A stretch of 64,000 bases of DNA from a virus. Numbering within the stretch: position 1 is the first letter of the stretch; every line of letters begins with the position of its first letter. Below the pieces are notes generated by a model. That model did not search any database, was not told the DNA's origin, and saw only the letters and a list, made by a program, of their open reading frames with translations. Both the position numbers and the translations under genes were made by a program. Shown here piece after piece: positions 4,598 to 62,420 of the stretch. Location: IMG/VR virus record IMGVR_UViG_3300031963_000063, positions 21,487 to 85,486 of that record; one strand, written 5' to 3'.

Positions 4598-4684
4598 TTA
4601 CTTATAAATCCACTGAATGTACGTTGATAACAATATCGTCATTAACGCAATTGCAGCAGTTGAAGAAATTAGAAATTGTACCAT
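4598..4684 (-). CDS. 28-aa hydrophobic peptide (MVQFLISSTAAIALMTILLSTYIQWIYK)
   Basis: TGATG coupling to upstream ORF; single TM-like segment. Confidence 0.5.
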   Translation of the reverse strand: MVQFLISSTAAIALMTILLSTYIQWIYK

Positions 4685-4782
4685 CACTTTGCTCCAACTA
4701 GTTGTGCTAGTTGTGCTTGATGACGACGATCTTCTTTTTGTTTTTGTTCTTTAATAAGTTGTAGGAAGTTAAGTTTTTTCAC
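4684..4782 (-). CDS. 32-aa basic helical peptide (MKKLNFLQLIKEQKQKEDRRHQAQLAQLVGAK)
   Basis: GTG start overlapping the stop of the DUF4278-like ORF (GTGA), GGAGG RBS. Confidence 0.6.
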   Translation of the reverse strand: MKKLNFLQLIKEQKQKEDRRHQAQLAQLVGAK

Positions 4783-4937
4783 TTCTGCACCTCCGCATTT
4801 CTGCAAGGACGGTATGCTACTCCACGATATGTGTTTTGTGGATGAGCAGGAGCGTGTGTTTGGTTATACCATGACACATACTCTTTCTTTGCATTTTCGG
4901 TGTCGTACTGACAACCTCTATAAACGACTTTAGACAT
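4779..4937 (-). CDS. DUF4278-like (YRG-motif) small protein, 52 aa
   Basis: MSKVVYRGCQYD...NTYRGVAYRP: two YRGxxY motifs; AAGGAG RBS; directly downstream of glutamine-aptamer-like RNA. Confidence 0.75.
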   Translation of the reverse strand: MSKVVYRGCQYDTENAKKEYVSWYNQTHAPAHPQNTYRGVAYRPCRNAEVQK

Positions 4938-4968: not shown

Positions 4969-5138
4969 GCGTTCCTTCAGTCGGCTTTTGCGTCTATGGG
5001 ACAAGTTTTTGGAGAGACTTGTTTAATCTCCCAAATTAAATCATTCTTTGCTTGTTTGGGAATATCTACTGTGTAAATTCTCCCAACCATTAATTGTGCC
5101 TGTAAGCAAGTTAAAATGATTGCTTCCATAGATGAACG
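4969..5138 (-). ncRNA. glnA-type glutamine riboswitch aptamer 2 (P2 loop expanded by an ORF)
   Basis: CGTTCA-TCTATGG...CCATAGA-CGCAAAAGCCGACTGAAGGAACGC; P1 CGTTC/GAACG and 7-bp P2 pair. Confidence 0.7.
4977..5129 (-). CDS. 50-aa two-Cys protein nested in aptamer 2 (MEAIILTCLQAQLM...KTCPIDAKAD)
   Basis: Translated by hand; ATG lies in P2 5' strand, and the C-terminal codons and stop are the aptamer core. Confidence 0.65.
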   Translation of the reverse strand: MEAIILTCLQAQLMVGRIYTVDIPKQAKNDLIWEIKQVSPKTCPIDAKAD

Positions 5139-5394
5139 TTCCGTTCCGAGTCGGCTTACTTCCGTCCTATTTAATTTTTAGCACTTTATAATTACGTCTT
5201 TTCGCAATTCTAATAGCAATCGGTCTTCAATCTTTTGGTGAACAACATCGTCGTTTTTAACGATGTCCATTAGTTCCCACGCTGCATTACAACTTATTGT
5301 GACTGGATATTCAGTTTTGATAAGTTGTGGTGAAGCAACAGAAAGAAGTGGAACCCATGCTAAAAGCAAAAGTGCTTTAGTCATAGGATGAACG
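5137..5394 (-). ncRNA. glnA-type glutamine riboswitch aptamer 1 (P2 loop expanded by an ORF)
   Basis: CGTTCA-TCCTAT...ATAGGA-CGGAAGTAAGCCGACTCGGAACGGAACG; conserved GGAAGTAAG junction, P1 and P2 pairing. Confidence 0.7.
5178..5384 (-). CDS. 68-aa two-Cys protein with signal-peptide-like N-terminus, nested in aptamer 1
   Basis: ORF track; hydrophobic N-terminus; resembles the 4977-5129 product. Confidence 0.7.
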   Translation of the reverse strand: MTKALLLLAWVPLLSVASPQLIKTEYPVTISCNAAWELMDIVKNDDVVHQKIEDRLLLELRKDVIIKC

Positions 5395-5441
5395 TTAGGG
5401 GATTATTATACCCCTATTCATAGTATATAGGTAGTTTTGTG

Positions 5442-5457
5442 TGTATTTCCTGATACA
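5442..5457. promoter_or_regulatory. NtcA binding site
   Basis: TGTA-TTTCCTGA-TACA = TGTA-N8-TACA, 15 nt upstream of a minus-strand TATACT -10 (5422-5427). Confidence 0.7.
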
Positions 5458-5517
5458 ATTTTAAAAAACTTTAGAAACCAAAAATTTTGCCGGAAAAATT
5501 TCCCCCTATTTGGGGAA

Positions 5518-5871
5518 TCACTTCCTCTTTTTGGTTTTCGGTGCTTGATAACCCCACAGTTTAGGATTGATTCTACCATAACCAAAGTCAATACTCTTCA
5601 AATTCTCACGAAACTTATCCCAGTACATATCAAACAATTTAGATCTCGTACCTCTTGTGAGATCAAAACAAATATTTTCTTCTACAAAATACTTGACAAT
5701 ATAAGCATCATTTGGTGCTTCTTTAGTGCAAACTTCAGCATACGAACCATTTTCAATCAGAACATCACACCCATAACGTGCTTTGCAATTCTCTTTTTCT
5801 GCTGGTGTCCAATAATCCATATGCTTTTCCGTATTGTGGGGTTTTTCAACTACATCACGAACTTGACTCAT
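5518..5871 (-). CDS. Conserved cyanophage hypothetical protein
   Basis: ORF track (start trimmed to MSQVRD); FDMYWDKF...GRINPKLW. Confidence 0.65.
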   Translation of the reverse strand: MSQVRDVVEKPHNTEKHMDYWTPAEKENCKARYGCDVLIENGSYAEVCTKEAPNDAYIVKYFVEENICFDLTRGTRSKLFDMYWDKFRENLKSIDFGYGRINPKLWGYQAPKTKKRK

Positions 5872-18890: not shown

Positions 18891-21689
18891 TTATACCCAA
18901 CTGATACGAACATATCCATCACCACCTTTTCCACCAATACCAAAAAGAGTAGAACCACCATTATAACCACCCCCTCCTCCACCAGAACCACGTTTTCCAT
19001 CTCCACCATCACCAACAAGTCCCCTTTTTGGTGATGTTAATAATACATTTGAATTTGCACTTAGAAAAAGATCTTGAGAGAATAACAAAGAACTACATGA
19101 ATTAACAGTTCCAGACGTCCTTCGTATCCAATGAATTGTATCTGTTGAAATACATAAAAACCCACCCCCACCTCCGATTAAATGAGTAATATTTCCAAAA
19201 GTATATCTAATAGGTCCAGAAGTAATGGTAGTGGTTCTTAACCTCCATTCAATTCCATTCGTAGAACTAAAGAGTTGTTGTCCAACAGTGGTCCCAATAT
19301 TAAAAATTCCGTTACCAATATTAATGTCTTCGAGAGTATTTAGTGTTCCAACCGTTCTTAGTGTCCAATGTATTGTATTTGTTGAAACAATTAATACTCC
19401 ATTTGCACCAATAACATAATAATTTGAATTATGATATAATATCTCTTTAAGAGAACCAACAAAATTAGATGTTGTTCTAAAAGTCCAATGTATACTATCC
19501 GTAGAGTGATTTAAAATAAACGGTGATCCTCCCCCATATATGAATTCATTATTACCATATTTGATAGTAACTGCAATGCGACTGTCTGCTGTACCAACTG
19601 TCCTTCTTTCCCAAGTAATTAAATCTGTAGATGCTAGTATTCCAGTTTGGGATGTACCAGCAGATATAACATATATACCATTTCCATAAGCAATATCGTG
19701 GATTAAATTACTAGTGCTTATGTTAGAAAGTGGTAAAGGTAAAAGAGTCCACGATATTCCATTAGTGGAACTATGTAGCATTCCATTCTGTGTACAAATA
19801 AAATAATTATCATTTAAATATCTCATTTTACTTACTGAGGTTGATCGAAGTCCAACTGTTCTGAGAATCCAATAAGATGCATCAATAAGAGTAGCCCCGC
19901 CACCATTTGCCCCAGAAGAAACAGGATAACCATTAACTATAGGAGAATTAGCATTAGTGTAATTTCGAGAAGCAGTATTAATGTTACTGCCATAAAGAGA
20001 TGATACTCCACCAGTACAACCAAAAAATCTAAATTCATCAATAGTAGAACTTAGAGGTAACACAATTGGGGGAGATGCATATCCACCACCACCTCCTGTA
20101 GACATTGATTGATAATGATCTAAAGATGATGGGGCAGTCCATTCTGTATTATTAAATAGTTCTCCAAGAGTTGTTCCTGGTATGGGTATTAATCCTGGTC
20201 CTCCTCCACCTCCTGGGGCTGCATATAAATAACCAGTATTTGCGGAAGGTTCAATACCTCCCGCACCTCCGAGCAAATCACCGTTGGTAGATCCACCTTT
20301 TCCACCATTTAATGTTAAAATACTAGTATCACCATTCCAAGAAACTGTAGTATTACCACCATCTGTTGCAGCAGTGCCACCAGATCCAACCGTTACTGTT
20401 AAATCAGTTTGAATAAAACTACTTGGAATTTTCCAGGTGGCAGTTGCTCCACCTCCTCCACCTCCGCCAGCAAATCCAGAAATCAATGTATATGATGGTG
20501 AGTAACCAATCAATTGCCCTGTATTAGCAAAAAAACTTCCATTTAAGTATCTAATACTACCAGCACTACTATTGGTTCCAACAATACCTCTTTGAAACCA
20601 AACAATACCATCAGTTGAAGTTCTCACTCGACTATAGCTTGAATCAGCAGTAGTCGCAGCAAATATATTTTCTCCAAAATCAACACCACTAAGAACTACT
20701 GCTGTTCCAATAGTTCTTAGAGACCATATTACAGAATTAGTTGAAGTATGTAACCCATTAGACCCGACAACTACGTATATTCCATTTCCATATGCAACAT
20801 CATACAATGATGGTGATCCAGAAAGAATATTATTAGTCCAATTAATACTATCTGTAGATGTTGCAACTTGACCAAGATTTGCTATTAAAATAAGACCTGT
20901 TGCAAATTCACTTGGATAATATCTAATCCTAAGGATATTCTGAGCACCAGATATACCACTAGTTCTGGATCTCCAATGAATCGCATCAGTAGAGACAGAA
21001 ACAGCACCAGCAGAACCAGATATGACATATAAATTTGGAGATGGTGTACCAAATTCTGTGGCAGAAAATATAGTAGTAGAAATTAATCCAACTGTTCTTG
21101 CAGTCCAATTAATTGTGTCAGTTGAACTTGAAAGGATTCCATTGCCGCCAACGCCACCAATAATATATTTTTGTGCAATTGTTGGTATAGATGCAAGACC
21201 AACAGCATTACCTAAAAGAGAATTACCTACGGTTCTTGCTATCCATTGAATACCATTTGTTGACACACGCAACATTCTTGTACTCCCAGCAAACATATAA
21301 ATTCCACCATTTTGAATGTACAAAAATTCCCAAATTGTACTGCCCGCACCAGAAGTCCTAAAAGACCAGACAGAACCAATCTTATAATTACTTGGATTAG
21401 AACTGCCACTGGCACCGCCACCCCCAGCACCAGTAGCCGAAATTGTTACGAGTTCCGCATTTGATGGTATAGTAAAATTGTAAGTTCCTGCGGCATCATA
21501 TTCCACATAACCAGAAAGTGGTTCCCAAGAAACTACACTACCATTTGTAAATAAAGACTCATTTTCATTTGATATTACCCCAGGAATTACAGTTGCTCTG
21601 TCATCAACATATTGTTTATAGACAGCATCAGTTGATGAAGTTGCTGTCGTAATTCCCGTAATCTGATCTGATTTTATTTCGACTGCCAT
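18891..21689 (-). CDS. Large virion/fibre protein, paralog 3
   Basis: DAVYKQYVD, STxxIxWxxRT repeats, C-terminal GGKGGDGYVRISWV. Confidence 0.7.
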   Translation of the reverse strand: MAVEIKSDQITGITTATSSTDAVYKQYVDDRATVIPGVISNENESLFTNGSVVSWEPLSGYVEYDAAGTYNFTIPSNAELVTISATGAGGGGASGSSNPSNYKIGSVWSFRTSGAGSTIWEFLYIQNGGIYMFAGSTRMLRVSTNGIQWIARTVGNSLLGNAVGLASIPTIAQKYIIGGVGGNGILSSSTDTINWTARTVGLISTTIFSATEFGTPSPNLYVISGSAGAVSVSTDAIHWRSRTSGISGAQNILRIRYYPSEFATGLILIANLGQVATSTDSINWTNNILSGSPSLYDVAYGNGIYVVVGSNGLHTSTNSVIWSLRTIGTAVVLSGVDFGENIFAATTADSSYSRVRTSTDGIVWFQRGIVGTNSSAGSIRYLNGSFFANTGQLIGYSPSYTLISGFAGGGGGGGATATWKIPSSFIQTDLTVTVGSGGTAATDGGNTTVSWNGDTSILTLNGGKGGSTNGDLLGGAGGIEPSANTGYLYAAPGGGGGPGLIPIPGTTLGELFNNTEWTAPSSLDHYQSMSTGGGGGYASPPIVLPLSSTIDEFRFFGCTGGVSSLYGSNINTASRNYTNANSPIVNGYPVSSGANGGGATLIDASYWILRTVGLRSTSVSKMRYLNDNYFICTQNGMLHSSTNGISWTLLPLPLSNISTSNLIHDIAYGNGIYVISAGTSQTGILASTDLITWERRTVGTADSRIAVTIKYGNNEFIYGGGSPFILNHSTDSIHWTFRTTSNFVGSLKEILYHNSNYYVIGANGVLIVSTNTIHWTLRTVGTLNTLEDINIGNGIFNIGTTVGQQLFSSTNGIEWRLRTTTITSGPIRYTFGNITHLIGGGGGFLCISTDTIHWIRRTSGTVNSCSSLLFSQDLFLSANSNVLLTSPKRGLVGDGGDGKRGSGGGGGGYNGGSTLFGIGGKGGDGYVRISWV

Positions 21690-62211: not shown

Positions 62212-62324
62212 AGGGTTAAAGTTGATTACTACTAGTTATGCTAGTGAGTACTTTTACTTTGTCAACTATGTGTTGGTTTCAAGAAAGTGATTAAGACAAT
62301 CTTAAATTTTGTCATATTTGTAAA

Positions 62325-62411
62325 CGGAAGGTGGGAGAGTCGAACTCCCAAGGGCTTTAACACCTCAACTGTTTTCAAGACAGGTACCGTCGCCAATCGG
62401 TTTGACCTTCC
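62325..62411 (-). tRNA. tRNA-Ser (TGA)
   Basis: GGAAGGT/ACCTTCC acceptor, CT-TGA-AA loop, long variable arm. Confidence 0.92.
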
Positions 62412-62420
62412 AAAAAGTCC

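Follow-up and report, generated by a model that had tools for sequence, protein, structure and literature searches.

Can a metabolite-sensing RNA still fold around its ligand when a complete gene lies inside one of its helices? This question is raised by a locus in a stretch of 64,000 nucleotides (nt) of viral DNA (hereafter the window; positions 21,487 to 85,486 of the IMG/VR record IMGVR_UViG_3300031963_000063), which is part of an 85-kb fragment of a T4-like cyanomyophage. On the minus strand of the window, at positions 5394-4969, two glnA-type (glutamine-I) riboswitch aptamers stand in tandem, and the P2 helix of each encloses a whole open reading frame (ORF), of 68 codons in the first and 50 codons in the second. 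Riboswitch aptamers are treated as compact non-coding modules, an assumption on which covariance-model searches rest, and here, in hundreds of viruses that are abundant in the ocean, a validated aptamer class is built around entire genes. We consider it probable that the locus gives rise to a single early-type phage mRNA, in which tandem type-1 glnA aptamers, the P2 of each expanded around a small gene, are followed by a DUF4278/IF17-like gene. The parts of the tandem are as follows.

5394-5389, minus strand: 5' strand of P1 of aptamer 1 and the junction A, CGTTCA; found at the same position in 33 of 33 loci with a long unit 1
5388-5383, minus strand: 5' strand of P2 of aptamer 1, TCCTAT; overlaps the ATG of ORF1 at 5384-5382
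5384-5178, minus strand: nested ORF1, 68 amino acids (aa), with a signal-peptide-like N-terminus and invariant Cys32 and Cys68
5170-5165, minus strand: 3' strand of P2 of aptamer 1, ATAGGA; pairs with 5388-5383 across 212 nt
5164-5142, minus strand: core and 3' strand of P1 of aptamer 1, CGGAAGTAAGCCGACTCGGAACG, with GAACG at 5146-5142; identical to the unit 1 core of the related locus L073
5141-5139, minus strand: spacer gaa between the units, read from the sequence
5138-5133, minus strand: 5' strand of P1 of aptamer 2, CGTTCA, read from the sequence
5132-5126, minus strand: 5' strand of P2 of aptamer 2, TCTATGG; contains the ATG of ORF2 at 5129-5127
5129-4977, minus strand: nested ORF2, 50 aa, with the C-terminus ...PIDAKAD* and invariant Cys8 and Cys43; the final five codons together with the stop coincide with the core of aptamer 2
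4999-4993, minus strand: 3' strand of P2 of aptamer 2, CCATAGA; codes for Pro-Ile-Asp, and its pairing partner across 126 nt is 5132-5126
4992-4970, minus strand: core and 3' strand of P1 of aptamer 2, CGCAAAAGCCGACTGAAGGAACG, with GAACG at 4974-4970 and the ORF2 stop TGA (4979-4977) inside; identical to the unit 2 core of the related locus L005

A check of the sequence from 5700 to 4700 recovered, each at its minus-strand position, all motifs and coordinates that had been reported in an earlier note on this DNA. The P2 helices comprise 6 bp in unit 1 and 7 bp in unit 2, and each of them follows CGUUCA and precedes an ACG(G/C)AA core. Their loops of 212 and 126 nt hold the ORFs, and the short terminal P2 loop of the compact glnA aptamer of about 53-61 nt is not present. 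The P1 strands CGUUC and GAACG are found in both units and are invariant across loci. In the minimum free energy (MFE) fold of the 471-nt RNA (-126.4 kcal/mol, z = -6.1) both long-range P2 helices were recovered.

Does such an element belong to the glutamine riboswitches at all? No glutamine family was matched in Rfam, neither in the window at the gathering cut-off (35 bits for RF01739 and 33 bits for RF01704), nor between 4700 and 5600 at E ≤ 10, nor in the whole 85-kb record, which bears out the claim of the earlier note that covariance-model scans overlook such expanded aptamers. The missing RF01739 match is likely caused by the insert of 140-224 nt. The effect of removing the loop was assessed on natural short-loop equivalents scored on RF01739. 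Unit 1 of L073, which has the P1, the six P2 pairs and the core of the window but a 9-nt loop, scored 38.1 bits on RF01739, and unit 2 of L005, which combines core 2 and the 3' flank of the window with a short loop, scored 37.2 bits. Natural short-loop equivalents with the same P1, P2 base and core thus exceed the RF01739 cut-off, and the glnA-type identity proposed from the sequence is upheld. Each unit holds only part of the RF01739 core consensus, which consists of ACGGAAGUA, a small P3 and GAAGGAACG: the core of unit 1 has CGGAAGUAAG but CUCGGAACG, and that of unit 2 has CGCAAAAG but CUGAAGGAACG. The same split of the consensus is seen in short-loop phage tandems that score around the RF01739 cut-off. 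RF01704 (glutamine-II) gave no match in the window at E ≤ 10, and in the relatives it gave only sub-threshold overlaps of 20.6-27.2 bits. At the same locus, phage S-CREM1 has an annotated glnA riboswitch, a canonical tandem with P2 loops of 4 nt and 10 nt, which precedes the same YRG-motif gene. By analogy with the known class, the split aptamers would be expected to sense glutamine.

The inserts themselves were then considered as genes. Among the matches listed, the 5' strand of P2 has an ATG at 3-6 nt in 103 of 103 long units, the frame opened by this ATG takes up the loop, and the stops of the long-unit ORFs are located in or adjoining the 3' strand of P2 or the core in all cases. The stop of ORF2 (UGA or UAA) falls inside the core in 67 of 70 units, and the stop of one ORF1 subtype is the UAA of CGCAAGUAAG. 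Across 31 distinct ORF1 and 66 distinct ORF2 sequences, the ATG frame is the sole open one, with 0 stops vs 4-6 in each other frame. ORF1 has a median ratio of nonsynonymous to synonymous substitution rates (dN/dS) of 0.33 and ORF2 one of 0.57, column entropy rises from codon position 2 over position 1 to position 3, and in each family precisely two cysteines are invariant, spaced by 35-36 residues. Judged by these signatures, both inserts are genuine protein-coding genes. Frames, dN/dS, codon-position entropy and conserved cysteines thus agree with what the earlier note had claimed, namely a complete gene inside each of the two tandem P2 loops, and its further placements, of the nested start codon in the 5' strand of P2 and of the last codons and stop of ORF2 in the aptamer core, hold in the 103 of 103 and the 67 of 70 units given above.

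The family profiles of ORF1 and ORF2 align cysteine to cysteine (probability 75%, E 2.5e-5), which suggests that the two are distant paralogues. The AlphaFold (AF2) model of ORF2 is a helical hairpin with a predicted local distance difference test (pLDDT) score of 84, and the AF2 model of ORF1 shows the same two helices (residues 32-44 and 50-67) after a low-confidence, signal-peptide-like N-terminus. No Pfam family matches the ORF1 or the ORF2 protein; in PHROGs, related families of unknown function were found, including a weak match of ORF2 to phrog_504, and a Foldseek comparison of the ORF2 model with the PDB gave no meaningful match. In a large protein collection the ORF2 family comprises 691 clusters, nearly all of them unnamed and a few mislabelled. 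Several of its 50-aa proteins (P0018, P0028, P0029, P0031 and others) are named 'indole-3-glycerol phosphate synthase' by JGI, which is almost certainly an annotation error.

If the halves of each aptamer still meet across the genes, the two strands of P2 should change together. For unit 2, we compared 44 distinct strand pairs at positions 3-7 with 5000 shuffles of the partners. Indeed, 170 of 220 cells are paired as opposed to 117.7 ± 8.1 after shuffling, and 0 of the 5000 shuffles reach the observed value. Positions 3-5 show three or four Watson-Crick or wobble pair types each, and the register is specific, with a fraction of 0.79 of the cells pairing vs 0.35-0.62 when the 3' strand is slid by 1-3 nt. 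On an ORF2 tree, which was built from the interior of ORF2 after removal of the P2 and core codons, no fewer than 8 changes of the pair state fall at position 4 and no fewer than 14 at position 5, and they affect both strands. The 5' strand of unit-2 P2 upstream of the AUG is non-coding, whereas the 3' strand includes the codon for the residue that precedes Asp, which is Ile, Trp, Lys or Glu. Since this residue covaries with untranslated bases, protein selection alone provides no explanation. For unit 1, P2 (TCCTAT/ATAGGA) is nearly invariant, and the evidence is weaker than for unit 2; it consists of the register test (a fraction of 0.79 of the cells pair vs at most 0.52 when slid) and of one fully compensated 9-bp P2 variant in L056, and points to the same pairing. 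The covariation of P2 across the ORF that the earlier note had proposed to test in homologs is therefore found in unit 2 (170/220 vs 117.7) but not in unit 1 (62/80 vs 60.2 shuffled, not significant), where the lack of significance results from a stem that hardly varies.

How widespread is this layout? Scanning IMG/VR with the pattern of the inter-aptamer junction yielded at least 120 loci, which together with the window and three isolate loci make 124 tandem loci. Among the matches listed, a short P2 in unit 1 is combined with a long P2 in unit 2 in 47 loci, both are short in 33, both are long in 20, and a long unit 1 is combined with a short unit 2 in 11; the long inserts, likewise among the matches listed, range from 199 to 225 nt for unit 1 and from 138 to 195 nt for unit 2. 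The isolate P-SSM4 has the same double-nested layout as the window, around its annotated genes 169.2 and 169.3, and dozens of IMG/VR contigs repeat the nested architecture, a recurrence that, like the recovery of both P2 helices in the MFE fold, speaks against chance. The spacer and P1 junction between the units is 91-97% conserved in P-SSM2, P-SSM3, P-SSM4, P-SSM5 and P-RSM3. When loci were picked by ORF1 protein similarity alone, CGTTCA was located at most 14 nt from the ATG in 77 of 80 and a glnA-type core followed the ORF in about 76 of 80, and among close relatives picked by ORF2 protein similarity the ORF was nested in 79 of 79. From this we conclude that the layout does not depend on the pattern-based selection of loci. 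In P-SSM4, the nested glutamine tandem is directly preceded by a manA RNA (L002:1019-1204, 184 bits), for which no match is present near 5400-5600 in the window.

Loci in which parts of the arrangement are missing are informative as well. In L198 (590-1000) both cores are deleted, ORF1 and ORF2 are still adjacent and the 5' half CGTTCATCCTATG is kept. ORF2 of this locus ends in ...KIPSINNDT and not in ...IDAKAD; as ORF2 ends differently where there is no core, DAKAD belongs to the RNA, not to the protein. In L238, L249 and L250 (about 590-880) ORF1 is directly followed by a terminator-like hairpin without a 3' aptamer half, and the 5' half reads CAGTTCA, not CGTTCA. Unit 1 of L073 (10479-10534, minus strand) has the short P2 TCCTAT-TTAAAATCA-ATAGGA, which retains the last bases preceding ATAGGA in ORF1-bearing loci, and looks like a clean deletion of ORF1 with the stem preserved. 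On the side of the hosts, one 2.8-Mb cyanobacterial genome (G232) among 301 sampled carries two free-standing ORF1-like copies, and no CGTTCA or GGAACG halves adjoin either of them. These copies, L171 (C1:1257621-1257812) and L174 (1300957-1301148), are identical to each other and ORF1b-like (...GWHMSCERFQQ...), and lie about 43 kb apart. With the ORF2 profile, no match was found in the 301 sampled Cyanobiaceae genomes, in a search whose positive control worked. The junction-pattern scan of genome contigs returned mostly chance matches in GC-rich genomes, in addition to one phage contig from a single-cell assembly of Prochlorococcus and a single Oscillatoriales match, and therefore holds little information on hosts.

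Compared with known systems, the closest relative is the type-1 glutamine riboswitch (glnA, RF01739), as in the Synechocystis gifB/IF17 leader, with which the element shares the P1 strands CGUUC/GAACG, the junction and core sequences, the tandem occurrence and a DUF4278/IF17-like gene downstream. In contrast to its P2 loop of 4-20 nt, P2 of the window is a long-range helix over a gene of 50 or 68 codons; moreover, P2 includes the start codon of the nested gene, the core includes the stop of ORF2, and the RF01739 model is blind to the window. The type-2 glutamine riboswitch of marine picocyanobacteria (Downstream-peptide motif, RF01704) resembles the element in its core sequences (CGUUCA, CGCA and GGAACG), in the same kind of DUF4278 cargo and in weak overlapping matches on the short-loop phage relatives, but forms a pseudoknot, with GGAACG in the loop of the second hairpin, without a three-way junction. 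Parallels for a gene within or next to a structured RNA exist elsewhere. In the Salmonella mgtA leader with mgtL, translation of an embedded ORF selects the RNA structure, as we propose here, but leader ORFs of this type encode short regulatory peptides between alternative stems, unlike conserved proteins of 50-68 aa that fill an aptamer loop. Group I introns with ORFs in peripheral loops likewise fold a structured core around a protein gene; such an intron is, however, a self-splicing ribozyme whose ORF encodes a mobile homing endonuclease, and thus differs from a metabolite sensor with small cysteine proteins. The glnA motif was first described in PMC2864571, and picocyanobacterial hosts have type 2 only (PMC6212724); the phages described here carry type-1-like tandems. 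A full-text literature search, which did not cover Ames & Breaker 2011, returned no description of a gene inside a glutamine aptamer; a paper on structural variants that mentions glutamine riboswitches concerns deletions in bacterial genomes and is different from the nested layout. The glutamine riboswitch class itself is already known, and we regard the nested-gene layout as a new form of it.

What the tandem might control depends on the transcription unit in which it is embedded, whose further features are listed here.

5517-5501, minus strand: terminator-like site, which closes the upstream gene
5398-5414, minus strand: promoter-like hairpin with the -10 element TATAAT (5410-5405) in the loop of GGGG-TATAATAAT-CCCC, 10 nt before P1 of aptamer 1
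4969-4946, minus strand: putative expression platform, in which the anti-Shine-Dalgarno (anti-SD) sequence CTCTTTAG (4969-4962) pairs with TTAAGGAG (4953-4946), which holds the Shine-Dalgarno (SD) sequence of the downstream gene
4937-4779, minus strand: downstream DUF4278/IF17-like gene, 52 aa, related to Pfam DUF4278 and phrog_5049
4591-4569, minus strand: terminator-like hairpin with a T-run, at which the transcription unit likely ends

In relatives, a -10-like hexamer is likewise found in a hairpin loop (GGTC-TATAAT-GACC) 7-10 nt before CGTTCA, with TTGACT at -35; a simple sigma-70 scan did not call the promoter-like hairpin of the window. We take this hairpin to resemble the promoter-early stem-loops of T4-type phages. 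Given the hairpin with its -10 hexamer before P1, the transcript probably begins just upstream of aptamer 1. The anti-SD pairing is present in the MFE fold and conserved in the window's class of loci, though not in all classes, and the predicted pairing of CTCTTTAG with TTAAGGAG may mask the downstream SD sequence as an expression platform. The downstream protein matches Pfam DUF4278 with E 1.5e-4 and 22.5 bits, which is below the cut-off of 25.3 bits, and phrog_5049 with E 1e-11. DUF4278/IF17-like genes are the usual cargo of glutamine riboswitches, and in the type-1 switch glutamine raises translation (ON), for which a model with an anti-ribosome-binding site has been proposed (PMC6212724). 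Further small ORFs are present at 4598-4806 on the minus strand, between the DUF4278-like gene and the terminator, for example one at 4806-4684 with a TTG start, which overlaps the DUF4278 stop.

Since P2 is expanded to hold a gene, the sensor forms only if both helices, P1 and P2, are closed across 130-215 nt of coding RNA. While transcription proceeds, the 5' halves would be unpaired and ribosomes could load on the nested AUGs, while P1 and P2 would close once the 3' half has been made and the ORF is free of ribosomes. Glutamine would stabilise the closed form and bury the nested start codon, so that the nested genes would be favoured at low glutamine. By analogy with gifB, a closed aptamer 2 would free the SD sequence of the DUF4278 gene, and the downstream gene would then be favoured at high glutamine. 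Ribosomes on ORF2 would traverse the core up to its UGA and thereby hold aptamer 2 open, and ribosomes terminating on ORF2 may also unmask the downstream SD sequence. The reciprocal glutamine control of nested and downstream genes that the earlier note had proposed would be consistent with this scheme. The proposal in its widest form is a translation-gated riboswitch of opposite polarity: the nested cysteine proteins would be produced when glutamine is low, the IF17-like protein when it is high or when ORF2 has been translated, and the readout would depend on ribosome traffic, in a design that is widespread in marine cyanophages and invisible to current scans; we put this proposal forward tentatively, our judgement inclining slightly to the side of doubt.

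Several observations weigh against the reading of the locus as a tandem of intact aptamers with this kind of control. Apart from the missing Rfam match and the non-significant covariation of the nearly invariant unit-1 P2, no SD sequence was found at either nested AUG. Both P1 helices share one sequence, and as the P1 strands are identical, covariation cannot assign which of them pair; moreover, the gaa spacer of the window creates an overlapping GAACG register, so that the MFE fold pairs the 5' P1 strand of unit 1 with GAACGUU and leaves P1 of unit 2 unformed. The 3' strand of P2 and core 2 are also coding, so that the protein could account for part of their conservation. The ORF2 tree rests on 45 columns and is poorly resolved, and the junction pattern with which IMG/VR was scanned includes P1 and core bases.

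Other explanations of the locus share part of this evidence. The P2 loop could be an insertion-tolerant spot in a gene-dense genome, P2 being kept solely for control of the DUF4278 gene, with the nested genes translated regardless of glutamine and the AUG placed in P2 by compactness. This would fit the free interchange of short and long P2 at both units, unit 1 of L073 with its apparently clean loss of ORF1, and the occurrence of the ORFs without aptamers (L198, L238, L249, L250 and the host genome G232). Nevertheless, we regard it as unlikely, given that the AUG is found at offset 3-6 of the 5' P2 strand in every one of the long units and the stop in or adjoining the 3' strand or core in all of them; besides, a closed P2 necessarily pairs the start codon, so that some coupling is hard to avoid. 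As an explanation it is plausible all the same, and it differs only in part from our own reading.

Two further possibilities deny that the aptamers work in the form described. Insertion of the ORFs might have destroyed them, their halves surviving as coding sequence, translation signals or recombination sites; the window without a covariance-model match, the coding nature of core 2 (DAKAD*) and the possibility that the stem halves are complementary simply because they derive from one split hairpin would all agree with such a relic. However, the two P2 strands covary in repeated changes within one ORF2 family, although only the 3' strand is coding and the 5' strand, upstream of the AUG, is not. 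The P1 strands, which are non-coding, are retained, as is AAGGAACG downstream of the stop, the cores are identical to those of short-loop forms above the Rfam cut-off, and the loci that have truly lost the 3' half (L238, L249 and L250) have a mutated 5' half (CAGTTCA), all of which makes a relic highly improbable. Finally, the conserved 45-nt stretch between the ORFs, which joins the 3' half of unit 1 to the 5' half of unit 2, could fold locally into a circularly permuted aptamer, with a capped P1 formed by GAACG-gaa-CGUUC and dispensable outer halves. No other piece is as conserved as the junction (91-97% in distant phages), whose two P1 strands flank a spacer of 3 nt, but a 3-nt loop closing P1 would be strained, the outer halves are kept in nearly all loci, and the 3' P2 strand of unit 1 shows no pairing signal with the 5' P2 strand of unit 2 (113/225 vs 119 shuffled, and 16/40 when both units are long); hence we give this arrangement hardly any credence.

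If the split aptamers bind glutamine, as the reading with aptamers closing over the nested genes supposes, sensing and translation of the internal gene can be mutually exclusive states of one RNA. The locus would then offer a case in nature in which long-range aptamer folding during transcription, and its competition with ribosomes, can be studied, and would expose a blind spot in riboswitch annotation. The IF17-like protein and the family of two-cysteine mini-proteins of unknown function suggest a phage module for reading the nitrogen status of the host, which is likely relevant to the way in which cyanophages handle nitrogen-limited hosts.

Elsewhere in the fragment, Rfam identified PhotoRC-II and wcaG RNAs and three tRNAs. 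An Rfam match to tRNA-Sec at 62326-62411 (site 62324-62412) on the minus strand, whose 47 bits are exactly the cut-off, was rejected, as ARAGORN assigns the site to tRNA-Ser(TGA), an ordinary long-arm tRNA; a tRNA-Pro and a tRNA-Val are located near it.

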